Notes: a model not told the origin generated them from the letters alone. Shown: positions 11,744 to 18,694, counted from the first letter of the stretch. The stretch is DNA of 64,000 nt from Bdellovibrio sp. ArHS (GCF_000786105.1 NZ_JTEV01000006.1:16410-80409), one strand, 5' to 3'. Program-made: numbers and translations.

Positions 11744-13333
11744 TTAGAATCCTGAAACATTCCCGACTTTGCGGTCTGCGGGTTCTTCCAACGGAAGGAC
11801 ATTTTCCATTTCAGTTTTGCGTTTAGCCGCTGCCATTTTTACGGGAGCTTTGAAGGTTTTAAAGGCTTTTGCATGGGACGCAGATAAAGATCGATTTACC
11901 GCTCCGACACCTTGAACCAGCGTGCGTAAATCAATCACCAAATCGGCCAAGGCCACAGCCTGAGCTGACATTTCCTCGGAAGAAGCCGCCACCTCTTCTG
12001 AAGAAGCTGCGTTGCCCTGGGTCGCCTGGTCCAACTGATTCATGGCTTTGGAAATCTGCTCCAGACCGCTGGCCTGCTCTTGGCTGGCCACGGAAATTTC
12101 GTTATTCAGATCTGCCACTTTTTTCACAGAATTAACGATGTCATTCAAAACAGTACCACTTTGGCTGGCAACCCGAGCACCGTTTTCACTCTTCGCCACG
12201 TTATCGTGAATCAGAGATGTGATGTCTTTTGCGGCAGCGGCACTTCTTTGCGCCAAATTTCTGACTGCCTCGGCAACCACTGCAAAACCTTTTCCTTGTT
12301 CCCCCGCACGAGCCGCTTCCACCGCTGCATTGAGGGCCAAAAGATTTGTCTGGAAAGCGATATCATCAATCACGGTGATGATTTCTTCGATTTGTTTGGA
12401 ACCTTTGGCAATCTCTTCCATCGCGCCGATCAATTTGGTGATCTCACTTTCACCATGCTCTGCAGAATCTCTGGACTTCTGTGATAAAGCATTGGCCTCT
12501 TTGGCATGATCCGCATTCAACTTCACCATACTTGAAAGCTCCTCGATCGATGCCACGGTTTCTTCTAAAGACGCCGCGGCCTCGGAGGACCCTGAAGACA
12601 ACTGTTGGCTGGCCGCTGATAGCTGGGTGCCCGAGGCCGATGTCTGATCCGCAGAGTTCGAAATTTCTCCACTGATTCGAGTCAAAGATTTGGCCAAAGA
12701 CGTTGCAAAGATATAGCCCACAGATGTGGCCGCCAAAAAACCAACGGCAATCATAATTATTACCATCGTTTCACCACGCGCGGTGGTTTCCGCTGCCTGG
12801 ACCTTGGCATTCTTTACGGCCTCTTCATGAAAAACTAAAAGGTCTGAAAGAGCCTCATCATGATTGCGACGAAGCAGAGGAATTTCACCATCCAAGATTT
12901 TGTCGACAGAAGCCTGGTCTCCTTTAAGAGCCGCGGCCATCAGCTTCTCGCCACCTTCGACAAACTTTTTCCAAGCGGCGTCCACTTTAGAAAAAAGCGC
13001 TTCTTCATTGGGAAGAAACGGAACTTCCAAATATTTTTTAGTAAGGGTGTCATTAATGACGACAGAGTCTTTAAACTCGTCGTACCACTTTGTCGCTTCC
13101 TGAGGAGTTTTTGCCAAGCTTGCGCGAAGAATTGTTCGATTCAGCTCTTGGGCACGATAGCGAATTCGACCAATGCTATTTACATTTGGCAAGTTCTGGT
13201 TGGCGATAATACTATAGACACCGACCACCGACCGATTGGATTGCCAACCAATACCCCCGACCACCAATAGCAACATGGATATTCCCACAAAAGCCCAAAT
13301 CATCTTAGCTTTTAAGCTGAAGCGCGCAAACAT
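11744..13333 (-). CDS. mcp: methyl-accepting chemotaxis protein with four-helix-bundle periplasmic sensor
   Basis: Two TM helices and signalling hairpin [37 protein letters not shown]. Confidence 0.97.
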
Positions 13334-13369: not shown

Positions 13370-13404
13370 ACGGTCAAATTCCACCAGTGGTGTATTTATA
13401 CCGT
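13370..13404. promoter_or_regulatory. 35-bp double operator, copy 1 (mcp leader)
   Basis: ACGGTCAAATTCCACCAGTGGTGTATTTATACCGT: two GGT-N8-ACC boxes separated by AGT; 29/35 identical to copy 2. Confidence 0.75.
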
Positions 13405-13416
13405 AATGCGCAGAGG

Positions 13417-13443
13417 TTATCGGAGCGATCCTCAAATTCTTAA
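13417..13443 (-). promoter_or_regulatory. sigma28 (FliA)-type promoter of mcp
   Basis: Minus strand TTAA-N15-TCCGATAA against consensus TAAA-N15-GCCGATAA, upstream of a chemoreceptor. Confidence 0.75.
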
Positions 13444-13458
13444 GCAGGTTGAAAAATA

Positions 13459-13683
13459 TTATTTAAAAAATTCAGATATCTCGACCCGGAAAGCCACGGC
13501 GAGTTTGTGAAGGGTGTAGAGACTGGGCGAGTGATCCCCCGCTTCTAACCGCTGGTAGTTGCGGAGATCAAAGCCAAAATCTTCCATTTTACGCTGAGAT
13601 AGACCTTTCGCCTTGCGGATTCTTTTTATGTTTTCCGCGATTCTCAACATCAGCTTCTGATATTTTGATTCAATAGACGCCAC
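13459..13683 (-). CDS. small XRE-family HTH regulator (controller/C-protein-like)
   Basis: 74 aa, GTG start; ENIKRIRKAKGLSQRKM...YQRLEAGDHSPSLYTLHKLAVAFRV is an HTH_3 pattern. Confidence 0.92.
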   Translation of the reverse strand: MASIESKYQKLMLRIAENIKRIRKAKGLSQRKMEDFGFDLRNYQRLEAGDHSPSLYTLHKLAVAFRVEISEFFK

Positions 13684-13701
13684 CTAATCAAGTTTATATA
13701 T

Positions 13702-13736
13702 ACGGTACAATTGTACCAGTGGTGTTCTTATACCGT
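13702..13736. promoter_or_regulatory. 35-bp double operator, copy 2 (XRE promoter)
   Basis: ACGGTACAATTGTACCAGTGGTGTTCTTATACCGT, containing the perfect palindrome GGTACAATTGTACC; 18 bp upstream of the XRE start. Confidence 0.78.
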
Positions 13737-13806: not shown

Positions 13807-15999
13807 TTAATGCTGCGCCATACGACGACGCTGCACTTCTTCTTTATAAAAGTTTCGTTCAAAGCGTCTGAAAGACTCTACGCGAACCTCAGATCCCAGA
13901 ACCTCTTTCATGCGCGCCAGGCTTTCTTTTTCCAAGACCCGCATTTTTTCTATGCCCTCTTTGATAAAATCTGGATGGATTTTGCTGCGTTTTTCGTGCA
14001 GCTCTTTCACTAAAGCGTTGGCCGTAGAAATCACCTGAATCGACTTATCCTCGTCGACACGCCAAGTTTTTAAAAGATACTGCGAGGCTGCGCGATAGAG
14101 TTTCTGCTGAAACTGCTCATCCGTATAAATTGCGGGATAGTTTCGGGTATAAATGACGGCATCCGTATAGGAGTCTTTGATCTCTTCGGCCTGTGGAGGA
14201 TTGAACTTACGCTTTTCCAAATCCTCTTGTCGTTTTTTGGCTTCTTGTGCAACCAGACTTTGCATCGGAGCCTGATCCGAGGACATTTTTTCAATGACCA
14301 CCTGACTGAAGAAATACACCAAAGCCCCCATCGCAAGCCCCACAGAGGCCCAACGCAGCTTTTCGGACTGGCGCTTCTTCAGCAAATCCACCGGCTTTGC
14401 CTGCAGGACCGTGGAAGACTGCGCCAAGGAGGCGACTTTTTCTTCGATGGCCTCTTTAATATGATTTTCCACTGTTGCAGAAATATTGCGCCACTGAGTC
14501 GGCTCCATCAGCAAGACAATCTCTTTTTCAACTGCCGCATGAATCTCTTTTATCAAAGAGGTCTTCTTTTGAATGACATCATGAAGAAGATCCTGTTCCA
14601 TTTTAAGCAGACGCTTGGACATTTCAAGACGCATTTCCTCCAGACGTTCTTCTTCGCTTTTAGCCATCTGGGACTTTTCTTTTTCCAGTTTTTCATTCAA
14701 AAATATTTTTTGCGCATCATACTCTTTGAACAAGTGTGACTTCTTTGCTTCTAGGTCACGCACATCCATACTTAAATGCGCTTGTTTTTCCTGAAGCGCT
14801 TGATTGGCTTCTTCCAGCTTTTTTTTATCTTGCGCAAACTGCTGCTGGGCCGCTTTCAGTTCATTCATTTTAGCCTCTTCAAGTTGAAGAAGCTCTCGGA
14901 TACGGGCTTCTTCACTGGCGTGCAGCTCTTGCAAGCGCTGGGCTTCACTTTTTAGCACGGCTTCCGCTCTTTGTTCTTCCAGGAAGCTCTTTTCTGCAAG
15001 TTCAAAGTTCTTTTGTTCAGCGTCTGCAAGAGCCGACTGAGCATTGCGAAGTTTGTCCTCCACTTCGATCAATTCCTTGGCCAAGACCTGCACCGCTTCT
15101 TGATTCAGCTTTAGTTTTTCTTGTACTTCTGAAGTCTGCAGCTGCGAAAATTCCAGAATACGCTGGGCTTCTTCACGGGCTCCCCGCAACAAGCCATCGG
15201 CCTCACTTTGCGCGGCCAGGCGACCGCTTTCCAAAGCCTCACTCTTCATCTTTTCTGCGGCCAAGGTGGCTTCCGAAATAAGATCCTCAGTATCTGTCTT
15301 GGCCTTGTCCTTCAAGGACTGCACATACATGTCGACTTCTTCACGCAGCTCTTGCGCCATCTTGCGGGCTTCGGTCAATAATTGGCGTCCCTGATTTTGA
15401 AAGTCGGACAAAATGGCATCGGCTTCTTTGTGGGCTTCTGCCATTCGCGTCTGATAAAAATATTCCGCCTGAGATTGGGCCTCTCGGGCTTTTTGATAGA
15501 TTGCCTGAACGCGCTTTTCTGCCTGCGTTTCACCTTCCAGAATAATTTGCGCGGCCTTGCGCTTGGCCTCGTGCAAAACCTTTTCAGCCTGAAACTGTGG
15601 AGTATTGGGCGGCGGCATGGCCACCGTATCCGGAAGAACCGGTTCTTCGCTGACAGCCACTTCTTCCGAAGATAAAGGCTCTTCCATTTCAGTGGTATTC
15701 AGATCGAAGGTCAGAAGATATTCGGAACGCCCCAATTGGATTTTATCGGCAAGGACCACATTGACCGGGGTCCCCTGGACAATCTTTGTCCCATTAATAA
15801 AGGTTCCATTGGAAGAATTTTTATCTTCAATCCAAATCTGGTTCCAACGACGACTGACCACCAGATGCACTCGACTGATATGATTATCGTTGAGGGCGAT
15901 ATCACAGTCGACAGAACGGCCGATGGTGAACGAGTCTTTGTTCACCTCTCGGCTGAGCACCTGATCCTTCCTTTGGATTGTGACAATAAACTTATTCAA
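13807..15999 (-). CDS. FHA-domain, long coiled-coil, single-TM protein
   Basis: FHA motifs FTIGRS, ISRVH and SSNGTFING; about 400 aa of E/Q/K/A-rich heptads; TM WASVGLAMGALVYFFSQVVI; C-terminal domain. Confidence 0.88.
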   Translation of the reverse strand: MNKFIVTIQRKDQVLSREVNKDSFTIGRSVDCDIALNDNHISRVHLVVSRRWNQIWIEDKNSSNGTFINGTKIVQGTPVNVVLADKIQLGRSEYLLTFDLNTTEMEEPLSSEEVAVSEEPVLPDTVAMPPPNTPQFQAEKVLHEAKRKAAQIILEGETQAEKRVQAIYQKAREAQSQAEYFYQTRMAEAHKEADAILSDFQNQGRQLLTEARKMAQELREEVDMYVQSLKDKAKTDTEDLISEATLAAEKMKSEALESGRLAAQSEADGLLRGAREEAQRILEFSQLQTSEVQEKLKLNQEAVQVLAKELIEVEDKLRNAQSALADAEQKNFELAEKSFLEEQRAEAVLKSEAQRLQELHASEEARIRELLQLEEAKMNELKAAQQQFAQDKKKLEEANQALQEKQAHLSMDVRDLEAKKSHLFKEYDAQKIFLNEKLEKEKSQMAKSEEERLEEMRLEMSKRLLKMEQDLLHDVIQKKTSLIKEIHAAVEKEIVLLMEPTQWRNISATVENHIKEAIEEKVASLAQSSTVLQAKPVDLLKKRQSEKLRWASVGLAMGALVYFFSQVVIEKMSSDQAPMQSLVAQEAKKRQEDLEKRKFNPPQAEEIKDSYTDAVIYTRNYPAIYTDEQFQQKLYRAASQYLLKTWRVDEDKSIQVISTANALVKELHEKRSKIHPDFIKEGIEKMRVLEKESLARMKEVLGSEVRVESFRRFERNFYKEEVQRRRMAQH

Positions 16000-16902
16000 T
16001 TAAGCACCCCGGGCGATCGCGGCCTTTCCAATTTCCTTATTCAGGGCGTCTTCCGCTAAGGCTTCGACGGCGTCGCGATGTTCGTCAAAGGGTTTTTCAT
16101 GTGCCGGAAAGTTATTGTTGTCGCTGCGATACCACAACAAATCCAATGCACTTTCAAAACGATCGACCATGGAAACGTACGCCCGTTCCGGTGACAAAAT
16201 CACATTCGTCACATGGGACATTAAAGAAAAAATAATACCCACGATCGAGGTTTTCATTGCAAATGAGATCTCATGAAGGAAGCGGTCCATGATATTTTTG
16301 GTGCTCTCCAAATCCTGAAGATTCATGGTTCCCAATTCTTGCAGACCGCCCGCAATACCGATAAAGGTTCCTAAGATACCGCCGACCACAAAAAGCCCCG
16401 GCAAAATAGAAATCAAATCATTCAACCCGACCATGGGGATCACGCCAAAAACACGATTGAAACAAGGATTATGTTGCAAAGTTGCTTTGGTGATATTGAG
16501 GAGTTTGGGATTGCCTTCGCTCCATTTTAAAAACTTCAATTGTTTTAAAATGTCTTTCACCAGCCAGGCACACCCTTGGCGGACCAAAAAGACACGGTCA
16601 CTTGTCGCCATAATTGAGTCTGGCTTACGGCGCTTCATACGATCACGAATTTCAAAAACCTCGTAATACGTTCTTTCCAAAAGCTTCTTGGCAAGAACAT
16701 AAAAAGAAACGTTCTGGGCTTTTCCCGGAATTTCACCTTCGATGAAATGATTCACGCGTTTTTCAAATTCTTTGGCAAACCACTCATGCCGACGGACGGT
16801 GTAATAAATCATGGCCCGGAAAAAAAAGCCGATCATGAACACGGCGCCCATCGCATATGGTAGAAATATAATAAAATACTCTGCTAAAGCTTTTGACGTC
16901 AC
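16000..16902 (-). CDS. MotA/TolQ/ExbB proton-channel family protein (ZorA-like TM core)
   Basis: LPGLFVVGGILGTFIGIAGGL...FAMKTSIVGIIFSL signature; stop codon abuts the FHA gene start. Confidence 0.85.
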   Translation of the reverse strand: MTSKALAEYFIIFLPYAMGAVFMIGFFFRAMIYYTVRRHEWFAKEFEKRVNHFIEGEIPGKAQNVSFYVLAKKLLERTYYEVFEIRDRMKRRKPDSIMATSDRVFLVRQGCAWLVKDILKQLKFLKWSEGNPKLLNITKATLQHNPCFNRVFGVIPMVGLNDLISILPGLFVVGGILGTFIGIAGGLQELGTMNLQDLESTKNIMDRFLHEISFAMKTSIVGIIFSLMSHVTNVILSPERAYVSMVDRFESALDLLWYRSDNNNFPAHEKPFDEHRDAVEALAEDALNKEIGKAAIARGA

Positions 16903-16911
16903 AACCCACCC

Positions 16912-18471
16912 CTATTTCTTTTGATCCATACTAAAACGAATGATCACTCGCTGCGCTTTTTTGCAGTCGTTCTGTTTACAAAACTCTGCCGCCGACGCGA
17001 CATTTCTGTTTTGCACCTTCATCACTTCAAGAAAGCTGCGTCCCGAAACCTTCATCAAACCCAAAAGTTCCTTTTGGTGTGCAAACGAGACATTCTGTTG
17101 ATCCAGCATATAGCTGAAAATGGAATTAGCGCGACGATAGCTAAGATCCATGTTGTATTTGATTGCGGCTTTATCTTCGGGTTTGCTACTTTGCGGGTCG
17201 ATAAAACGCCCCTGATACGTGGGTGAGGCAAAGCCAATCACTTCCACCGCCGAAATCTTGTCAGAGACCTTGGGATTGCCAAAAAGAGACTTCGAATAAA
17301 TCGGCATGGCCTTTTCAAGCACGCCCTTCATTTCCGCTTTCAGGCGGTCCGAGTCACTATCGAAGTAGGCTTGACCGAAATCCAGAACCACATCCCCCGT
17401 TTGCATATCAATGTCGGCTTTCACACCCGCTTTGGCGAAACCCCGTTGAATTTCTCCGGCCACCATTTTGCGCGCTTCAATTTCAGCCTTGGCCTTGGCC
17501 AGCTGTCCTTGGGTTTCCTGCAAAGCCCCTTGCAGGGCCGCGGCTCTTTGGGCTCCGGCCATACGCTCGGCCTGGGCCCGGGCTTCGGCGGCGGCCAGGC
17601 GTGCCTGCGCTTGGGCTTTGGTTTCTGCCAATTGCCCACTAAGACCGGCCACTTCTCCTTCTTTCTTAGCTAAAAGTCCTTGGGTTTTCGTCAGTTCCCC
17701 TTGAGCTTGGCCTAACTGCGTTGTCGCCTCTTGCAGCTGGGACTGATATTGAGCGTTCACTTGCGCCAGCTGTTGCACCTTTTGCTGACTTTCAGCTCGC
17801 GCCTGCGCCATCTTTTGTTCGAACAAGTTCTTCGTGATCTTGTTCATTTTGTAAGCGGCGCGAAGATCGTTCACCCGTTTCTGCAACACAGCCTGCGTCT
17901 GACGAATTTTAAGCTCGCCCTGAGCGATAAGTTGTTTTTTGTCCTGAATATCCTTATTCAGATCGGCAATCTGCGTTTCTTGTGTTTCAATTTCAACGTC
18001 TTGTTCTTTAATCAAGTCATCCCGATTGACTATTTTAGACTTCGCCATCTTATTGGCGTTAAGAACATTGCGCACCATCTGTTGGTACTTATTAAGTGCT
18101 TTGACTTTCTTTTCGTTTTCCAAAGCCTCTTGCACCAAGCGATCCTTTTCGGACTTGGCGTCTTCTTGCAAGAGAGTGAGCTTATCCATAAGCTCCTGAT
18201 ACTCTTGCGCTTCGTCCTTCGTGGCCTGATTAGCCAGATAATCGTTCTTGACTGATTCATACATCTTCAATTGATGCTCCAGCTCTTCGACTTTGATGGA
18301 TAGCTTTTGATTCTCAATCTGACTTCGCAACCCTTCAGTTCCCGTACGTAAACTCGCAGTCACATAAAGCAACAGGAAGATCGTGCTTAAACCCAAGAAC
18401 AAGTCCGAATACGACGTCCAAAAACTGTCTTGCGAATTATGGTCTTTACTCTTGTTGTAATTAAAAGACAT
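16912..18471 (-). CDS. MotB/ZorB-like protein: TM with conserved Asp, long coiled coil, C-terminal OmpA-like domain
   Basis: FWTSYSDLFLGLSTIFLLL TM; about 290-aa coiled coil; OmpA-like FDSDSDRLK...VIGFAS...NMDLSYRRA...RVIIRF. Start moved to ATG 18471. Confidence 0.85.
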   Translation of the reverse strand: MSFNYNKSKDHNSQDSFWTSYSDLFLGLSTIFLLLYVTASLRTGTEGLRSQIENQKLSIKVEELEHQLKMYESVKNDYLANQATKDEAQEYQELMDKLTLLQEDAKSEKDRLVQEALENEKKVKALNKYQQMVRNVLNANKMAKSKIVNRDDLIKEQDVEIETQETQIADLNKDIQDKKQLIAQGELKIRQTQAVLQKRVNDLRAAYKMNKITKNLFEQKMAQARAESQQKVQQLAQVNAQYQSQLQEATTQLGQAQGELTKTQGLLAKKEGEVAGLSGQLAETKAQAQARLAAAEARAQAERMAGAQRAAALQGALQETQGQLAKAKAEIEARKMVAGEIQRGFAKAGVKADIDMQTGDVVLDFGQAYFDSDSDRLKAEMKGVLEKAMPIYSKSLFGNPKVSDKISAVEVIGFASPTYQGRFIDPQSSKPEDKAAIKYNMDLSYRRANSIFSYMLDQQNVSFAHQKELLGLMKVSGRSFLEVMKVQNRNVASAAEFCKQNDCKKAQRVIIRFSMDQKK

Positions 18472-18694
18472 ACAGACGCACCCCACCTGCAACCAAGAAT
18501 AGCAGGGGTTCACGGAAGTCCTATGCCTCAAAAACAGAATCTTGTGTTTTTGTTTATTCAGGATTGTCGAACTCTTCGACGTTCGCAAATCCAGAACAAC
18601 ATTCCCGCGGATTATGAAAACTTTTTCGTCAGTGTCTGTTGTGATTCTGTCAAAGAATATGGCGGGAAATTTATATCGCTGAAAAATGCGTTCG

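Follow-up and report, generated by a model that had tools for sequence, protein, structure and literature searches.

A putative controller-protein-type XRE regulator with matching double operators at its own gene and behind the FliA promoter of a chemoreceptor gene in Bdellovibrio

RESULTS

The XRE gene lies between an FHA-domain gene and a chemoreceptor gene

We examined a 64,000-nucleotide stretch of the Bdellovibrio sp. ArHS genome (NZ_JTEV01000006.1:16410-80409; hereafter the window), in which a small XRE-family gene had been predicted to be bracketed by two copies of a double operator and wired to a chemoreceptor (MCP). The genes of the locus are all on the minus strand, in the order MotB/OmpA-like, MotA-like, FHA-domain, 74-amino-acid (aa) XRE, MCP, and ftsY. 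The features are as follows.

11744-13333, minus strand: MCP gene, 529 aa, with 4HB_MCP/TarH sensor and MCPsignal domains (Pfam)
13370-13404, minus strand: second operator copy, in the MCP leader, ACGGTATAAATACACC-ACT-GGTGGAATTTGACCGT, with the conserved box 1 at 13389-13402 and the variable box 2 at 13372-13385
13417-13443, minus strand: FliA (sigma-28) type MCP promoter, read from the sequence, with TTAAG at 13439-13443, 15 nt, and CCGATAA at 13417-13423
13459-13683, minus strand: XRE gene, 74 aa, GTG start, HTH_3 domain
13691-13696, minus strand: −10-like hexamer TAAACT of the XRE gene, 5 nt past the operator and 7 nt before the GTG
13702-13736, minus strand: the XRE gene's own 35-bp double operator, ACGGTATAAGAACACC-ACT-GGTACAATTGTACCGT, with the distal box at 13721-13734 and the proximal box at 13704-13717
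13807-15999, minus strand: FHA-domain gene, 730 aa

Other neighboring genes encode a GNAT acetyltransferase, a nitroreductase, and an L,D-transpeptidase. Within ~10 kb on either side of the XRE gene we found neither phage genes nor, as had been anticipated, any restriction-modification (R-M) genes. R-M genes were also not found at the annotated related loci described below, and mobile-element genes were not found in the window.

The three genes upstream of the XRE gene (MotB/OmpA-like, MotA/ExbB-like, and FHA coiled-coil; 13807-18588, minus strand) form an operon with PADLOC matches to ZorB1 (4.6e-29) and ZorA (1e-10). Because the FHA gene is found in 37 of the 41 genomes of the genus, this operon looks like a core, stator-like operon and not a defense island.

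The genome contains two full operator sites

The two 35-bp direct repeats that were predicted to flank the XRE gene are present at 13370-13404 and 13702-13736 and are identical at 29 of 35 positions. Each has the two-box structure of the original prediction, which reads GGT-N8-ACC, AGT, GGT-N8-ACC on the plus strand. Weak similarity between the copies reaches a few bases past the 35-mers. A search of the window for the site pattern with up to 2 mismatches returned only these two sites (four strand-matches, versus 0.03 expected from dinucleotide shuffles). When the scan was extended to the whole genome (3.54 Mb), these two remained the only full sites, and one additional match with 2 mismatches was at the level of the reversed-pattern control.

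We obtained the same picture with position weight matrices (PWMs). A PWM trained on own-promoter sites of the XRE family, from which the MCP site was left out, assigns 51.7 bits to the MCP site, and nowhere else in the genome does the score reach 12 bits. In a single-box scan, the four boxes score 22.5-28.2 bits, and the next best matches (19.5 and 16.2 bits) lie inside coding frames. Because the genome holds no further full site, we take the predicted regulon in Bdellovibrio sp. ArHS to be xre plus mcp. A scan of a viral contig collection for the operator gave no matches.

The architecture of the XRE gene's own promoter is conserved across 19 loci

We compared 19 loci, one in the window, nine in other Bdellovibrio genomes, and nine on metagenome contigs. 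Their XRE proteins are 57-86% identical to that of the window, and the genes occupy at least seven different neighborhoods; the relatives retrieved from the genome collection all belong to Bdellovibrio. A 35-bp site is found upstream of the XRE gene at all 19 loci, and the flanks of distant members cannot be aligned. The own-site consensus across loci is ACGGTAnAAnnACACC-ACT-GGTnnAnnnnnACCGT. With one identical duplicate left out, the other 18 own sites yield the consensus ACGGTAnAAnnACACCACTGGTnnAnnnnnACCGT, in which the outer trinucleotides are ACG and CGT. Conservation is stronger in the 5′ box than in the 3′ box (mean information 1.69 versus 1.13 bits per position), and at one locus (m105) the 3′ box of the own site has lost its GGT/ACC.

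Past the site, at a distance of 5-6 nt, all 19 loci carry a hexamer [TC]A[AG]A[AC]T, mostly TAAACT, in which A2 and T6 are invariant and which is followed after 6-8 nt by the start codon. The spacing between site and start codon is 17-18 nt at 18 loci and 19 nt at the remaining one, with no Shine-Dalgarno sequence. In the window, the operator ends 18 nt before the XRE GTG and no Shine-Dalgarno sequence lies between them, exactly as originally described. From this arrangement, the xre mRNA is predicted to be leaderless. With the start codon taken as +1, the distal box extends from about −51 to −38 and the proximal box from about −34 to −21, and the proximal box covers a weak −35 element (CTGGTA, 3/6 matches). 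We also considered a sigma-70 extended −10 (TGgTACAAT) within the proximal box as the main promoter and rejected it, since only about half of the own sites conserve it.

The XRE protein ranks closest to R-M controller proteins

The XRE protein contains an HTH_3 domain (Pfam, E = 9.5e-9) and no sensor domain. In a single-sequence search against solved structures, the top two matches are the R-M controller (C) proteins C.BclI (2.6e-6) and C.AhdI (5e-4). A profile of the 19 family members has as its top matches C.AhdI (1.3e-6), QseC (1.7e-6), and C.BclI (2.8e-6). The AlphaFold model of the protein (pLDDT 89.7), when compared with the PDB by Foldseek, gives C.BclI and C.AhdI as its first four matches (TM ~0.8, rmsd ~1.1 Å), and three PADLOC R-M "Control_protein" models match the protein end to end. 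The likeness is modest (~30 bits, 30-32% identity), and other XRE proteins score only slightly lower. PHROG "transcriptional repressor" families match at 5.6e-10. Because these other XRE proteins follow so closely, the placement among C proteins is a ranking and not a proof. The proposed C-protein type is upheld in that R-M controllers are closest both by sequence and by predicted fold, by small margins.

Public gene calls often start the protein at an internal Met12 (63 aa) or give a 42-aa product. Codons 2-11 show synonymous changes and keep the peptide (A/G)S(I/L)E.KY.KL (SIETKYxKL), also in homologs that start with ATG. Because codons 1-11 are conserved and the spacing from operator to start is fixed, comparison across the family indicates that the 74-aa form with the GTG start is the correct one over the internal ATG.

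Two other identities for the XRE protein were examined and rejected. An antitoxin of a type II toxin-antitoxin system (HigA/MqsA type) would be expected to have a small partner, and there is no small partner open reading frame; the genes on either side encode an MCP of 529 aa and an FHA protein of 730 aa, and the MqsA and HigA matches are weak and below cutoffs. A prophage CI/Cro immunity repressor is not consistent with the lack of phage genes within ~10 kb on either side and of the operator in viral contigs. A search of a phage collection with the XRE protein returned generic XRE matches only, the best of them 41% identical.

A second operator copy follows the FliA promoter of the MCP gene

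The gap of 125 nt between the XRE and MCP genes contains an MCP promoter, TTAAG-N15-CCGATAA, that matches the attack-phase FliA consensus. In Bdellovibrio bacteriovorus, the mapped consensus of attack-phase FliA promoters is TTAAG-N16-CCGATA (PMC3627812). The second operator copy starts 12 nt after CCGATAA, and so lies just downstream of the mcp −10 element, where it had been placed by the original prediction.

This second site is also kept behind the sigma-28 promoter of the MCP gene in relatives. The CCGATAA −10 element is present in all MCP-linked relatives, and the succession of a −10 element, 12-15 nt, and ACGGTAnAAnnACACC (box 1) is found at 8 MCP promoters in two unrelated contexts and at 2 promoters of receiver genes. 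The arrangement is kept at seven further FHA-XRE-MCP-ftsY loci, at an XRE-MCP pair elsewhere on the chromosome (m106, and probably also L120), and before genes for single-domain (CheY-like) receivers (G031 and m105), where box 1 lies behind a TAAAAT element. Box 1 is intact in 10 of 10 target sites compared, as well as in two further loci (L064 and L120). In the target site, box 2 varies, being displaced by 1-2 nt, altered, or, in G025, m106, G031, and m105, absent. Strong constraint at the MCP site is limited to the first box, and because of the drift of box 2, formation of a tetramer at this site is doubtful.

A metagenome scan for target-type sites (GTTTACGGTAnAAnnACACCA) gave 21 matches, 19 of them to unrelated DNA of other organisms. 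Two matches adjoin an XRE gene, namely the already known m106 and the new L120, where the XRE gene is followed by an MCP gene.

We also asked whether the MCP site is followed by a second controller-dependent promoter. The window has a TAAACT there, and we rejected this candidate because relatives do not conserve it and its spacing is wrong by 7 nt.

Among the ~22 MCP-like genes of the genome, only the one beside the XRE gene is predicted to be wired to this XRE regulator. Paralogous MCP loci of the genus (L056, L039, and L057, which include position C6:149004 in the genome of the window) have a (C/G)CCGATAT −10 element and a conserved leader, ATTACAA(A/T)(A/T)AT(A/C)AAAGGA, and no controller box.

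Presence and absence of the XRE gene and of its sites

The XRE gene and its sites tend to occur together in relatives. Two genomes in which no XRE gene was found (G002 and G023, one of them only 88% complete) carry an MCP ortholog (71-73% identical) with a decayed box, which reads ACCGCAGAAATACACCGCTGGTTGAATTCTGCCGT in G002; this pattern of co-loss is drawn from these two genomes. In one distant species, the FHA gene is followed by an MCP gene (56% identical) and ftsY, with neither an XRE gene nor a box. In ten congeners, the FHA gene directly abuts ftsY, and these genomes therefore represent an empty site that lacks both the XRE and MCP genes. Conversely, XRE homologs in seven loci of other context have the upstream copy only. 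These presence and absence patterns fit a coevolution of the XRE protein with its sites.

In several relatives, the FHA and XRE genes are separated by a gap of ~470 nt (L061/L063, 2533-3000; L005-L009, about 1360-1440). It holds a conserved element, GAAAAACAAAG(G/T)CTAGTTTTGT, which is absent from the window.

Members of the XRE family also lie beside other signaling genes

Family members in other settings are 57-74% identical to the XRE protein of the window. Three of them (m069, m070, and m108) are divergent from genes for single-domain receivers, with the operator in the gap of ~70 nt, and the m108 member also lies upstream of a PAS-HisKA-CZB sensor kinase. The m072 and m074 members are divergent from another small HTH gene and the m109 member from an unannotated 97-aa gene, and TrbC is found near one distant member. 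Because the receiver genes beside family members are only ~30% identical to one another, the recurrent link to signaling genes is not simple synteny. As far as gene neighborhoods indicate, the module of the window is one instance of a Bdellovibrio family that is also found beside receiver-domain and sensor-kinase genes.

The m072 and m107 members precede a conserved operon of four unknown genes. The four genes (L072, 1470-4336; L107, 2790-5258) are on the same strand, encode proteins of about 118-165, 212, 210, and 230 aa, and have no Pfam families except a weak HTH_26 in the first protein; they may be cargo of the controller. A Pfam search of the genes downstream of L067, L072, and L074 was uninformative. 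At L070/L071 (50-2221), a diversity-generating retroelement (DGR; HTH_17, bAvd, RVT_1) adjoins the divergent receiver-XRE pair.

DISCUSSION

The module resembles C.PvuII-type controllers and differs from them in specificity and cargo

Controller proteins are the textbook example of how dangerous restriction enzymes can be expressed late and in a self-limiting manner, and to our knowledge only a few orphan controllers, such as QseC, have been studied. The sites of the C.PvuII-like group, as described by Sorokin et al., are 35 bp long. Two operator copies, the better of which is the 5′ one, lie on either side of a conserved asymmetric trinucleotide, the outer trinucleotides are complementary, and the distance to the start codon has a sharp peak at 17-18 nt that is linked to leaderless mRNAs (PMC2632904). 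The 35-bp double operator of the Bdellovibrio family and its gap of 17-18 nt to a start codon without a Shine-Dalgarno sequence match this published architecture, as the original prediction had suggested. With C.AhdI, C.BclI, C.Esp1396I, and C.PvuII the family shares a small, all-helical XRE protein (74 aa here), the 35-bp two-box operator with complementary outer trinucleotides (ACG...CGT here) and a conserved asymmetric center, the better 5′ box, a gap (17-19 nt here) to a start codon without a Shine-Dalgarno sequence, and a proximal box that lies over the −35 region.

There are also clear differences. The Bdellovibrio box is GGT-N8-ACC instead of GACT-N3-AGTC, the center is ACT instead of GTG, and box centers are 17 bp apart in the Bdellovibrio site. 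The Bdellovibrio promoters have a clear, conserved −10 element, whereas C promoters are usually without one. Moreover, no R or M gene is linked, and the cargo is a chemoreceptor gene with its own sigma-28 promoter.

The behavior of known C proteins offers a guide to what the two sites may do. In the AhdI and Esp1396I systems, the distal site activates and the proximal site represses (PMC2275141, PMC2691842). C.Esp1396I also represses the M promoter via a single site (PMC2691842), and the MCP gene has a comparable separate single site at a second promoter, at which repression is predicted. C.Kpn2I works as a roadblock (PMC6237814).

Many C homologs without R-M genes were already listed in a 2008 survey (PMC2632904). 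QseC/QseC2 of the Mesorhizobium ICEMlSymR7A is a C-like system outside R-M that forms an epigenetic switch (PMC8789080). QseC is the second-best match of the family profile in the PDB (1.7e-6) and, like the Bdellovibrio protein, is C-like without a link to R-M. Its dual operators, leaderless mRNA, and control of an adjacent regulatory gene unrelated to R-M resemble the Bdellovibrio module, for which the leaderless mRNA and the control are predictions, and some Bdellovibrio members likewise face a divergent gene across the operator. The two differ in that QseC resides on an integrative and conjugative element and controls an antiactivator via overlapping divergent promoters, whereas the Bdellovibrio target is downstream and has its own alternative-sigma promoter and a second operator copy.

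Lambda CI at OR/PRM and 434-type Cro/CI offer a wider comparison. Shared features are the HTH repressor fold, neighboring operators that differ in affinity, an autoregulated transcript without a leader (predicted here), and a geometry that allows activation by one dimer and repression by the next. In contrast to these repressors, the Bdellovibrio XRE protein lacks a C-terminal domain for oligomerization or cleavage, is not accompanied by a Cro gene in the window or by prophage genes, and has relatives in the phage collection that are at most 41% identical.

A proposed mechanism for the control of one attack-phase chemoreceptor

We think it probable, from the sites and their conservation, that the XRE protein is a domesticated controller of the C-protein lineage that regulates its own gene and represses one attack-phase chemoreceptor. 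Dimers would bind each GGT-N8-ACC box, in which the half-site centers are 11 bp apart. Because the proximal box covers the −35 region and the distal box lies just upstream of it, we infer that a dimer on the proximal box, over the weak −35 element, would lead at least to self-repression. By analogy with C.AhdI and C.Esp1396I, and given the weak −35 element, the XRE protein may act first as an activator at the distal box and afterwards as a repressor at the proximal box. No sensor domain is present in the protein, so what determines its level is probably its own feedback together with how efficiently the presumably leaderless xre mRNA is translated.

For the MCP gene, we propose that a single dimer bound to box 1 (about +6 to +21 of the FliA promoter) would block initiation or escape from the promoter and could also halt any read-through that comes from xre. 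Production of the MCP would then require active FliA together with a low level of the controller. The timing or bistability of an xre-mcp switch, which was the core of the original prediction, is plausible. We can also conjecture a more far-reaching version, which we hold to be improbable as a whole: a heritable, bistable, QseC-like switch would split an isogenic population of attack-phase cells by MCP display; the XRE and MCP genes would form a transferable cassette in which the controller delays or gates the receptor on arrival in a new genome; and elsewhere CheY-like receivers and a sensor kinase would be gated by the same family, making its members dedicated controllers of signaling genes in Bdellovibrio.

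Alternative explanations

The XRE protein could instead be a plain, Cro-like autorepressor with no activation step, in which case both of its own boxes would occlude RNA polymerase, the likeness to C proteins would be superficial, and the MCP gene would be constitutively repressed to a set level. We regard this alternative as unlikely, while recognizing that many kinds of XRE repressor score nearly as well as C proteins, that the match to the PHROG "transcriptional repressor" families is at 5.6e-10, and that the proximal box of the window contains the alternative extended −10, TGgTACAAT. The motif TGnTAnnnT, however, occurs in about half of the 19 own sites, compared with TA(A/G)ACT at a fixed distance from the start in all of them. 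The weakness of the −35 region (CTGGTA, 3/6), the 35-bp length of the site, the asymmetric conservation of its boxes, and the 17-18-nt spacing, which are of the C.PvuII type, also speak against a plain repressor.

A second alternative borrows the layout of operons in which a controller gene precedes its cargo. The MCP would be made mainly by read-through from the xre promoter, the second site would be an internal roadblock or attenuator, and the controller would have a net positive effect at low levels. No terminator-like hairpin was found on the minus strand between the XRE stop and the MCP start, and because of this some co-transcription is possible; in R-M systems, C genes are co-transcribed with their cargo (PMC2632904, PMC2275141), and the roadblock action of C.Kpn2I (PMC6237814) provides a precedent for the second site. 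Yet the 125-nt gap contains a near-consensus FliA promoter that is kept in MCP-linked relatives with box 1 at a fixed distance, and the receiver-gene contexts also have box 1 behind a separate TAAAAT element. We therefore give such an operon a low probability, and we continue to favor a controller that represses the MCP gene at the gene's own promoter.

It is still less probable that the copy on the MCP side acts as RNA, as a hairpin in the 5′ untranslated region that affects stability or translation independently of the XRE protein. The predicted folding energies are −10 to −12.7 kcal/mol (z-scores −2.2 to −3.1), and relatives with box 2 displaced by 1-2 nt still have the outer ACGGU/ACCGU stem. 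RNA folding is expected of any DNA palindrome. Moreover, the loci that keep box 1 only (G025, m106, G031, and m105) cannot fold the hairpin, which argues that the conserved function is DNA recognition and not an RNA fold. Transcription of xre is predicted to start downstream of the own-promoter copy, and the element decays in G002 and G023, in which no XRE gene was found.

Finally, the reading that the original prediction had set against itself, in which the repeats are mere scars (a target-site duplication or a tandem-duplication remnant of XRE insertion) with an empty-site allele and no regulatory role at the MCP gene, is most improbable: the copies are direct repeats that flank the gene, weak similarity continues a few bases outside the 35-mers, and the XRE and MCP genes form an accessory cassette that is missing from many congeners (the FHA gene abuts ftsY in 10 genomes), but a functionless target-site duplication is contradicted by empty sites that lack both genes and not the XRE gene alone and by the seven loci with the upstream copy only, and three unrelated contexts selectively keep the downstream box 1 at a constant distance from the −10 element.

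Implications of a controller with chromosomal cargo

The attack-phase program of Bdellovibrio is otherwise ascribed almost wholly to FliA. Repression of an MCP gene by a second regulator that acts just behind its FliA promoter would offer a candidate explanation for how a bacterial predator varies its chemoreceptor set from cell to cell or from phase to phase. While C homologs without R-M genes were known, the features that appear to be new are the operator specificity GGT-N8-ACC, the clear −10 element, the chromosomal, nontoxic cargo (a chemoreceptor or CheY-like gene), and the second operator just behind an alternative-sigma promoter. We suggest that the module provides a simple, testable case of a C-type switch rewired onto host signaling genes. 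As a compact, orthogonal repressor-operator pair, it could also serve the growing genetic toolbox of Bdellovibrio.

The GGT-N8-ACC box adds a new operator specificity to a well-studied fold. A paralog in Bdellovibrio sp. HCB290 (L067, 2950-3010; 49% identical), whose downstream genes have no Pfam match, carries a different double site, ACGACCTTTAGAGGTCGT-GGTCCTTTTAAGGTCGT, with GTG at its center. This site stops 17 nt short of the ATG, and a CACACT hexamer comes after it.
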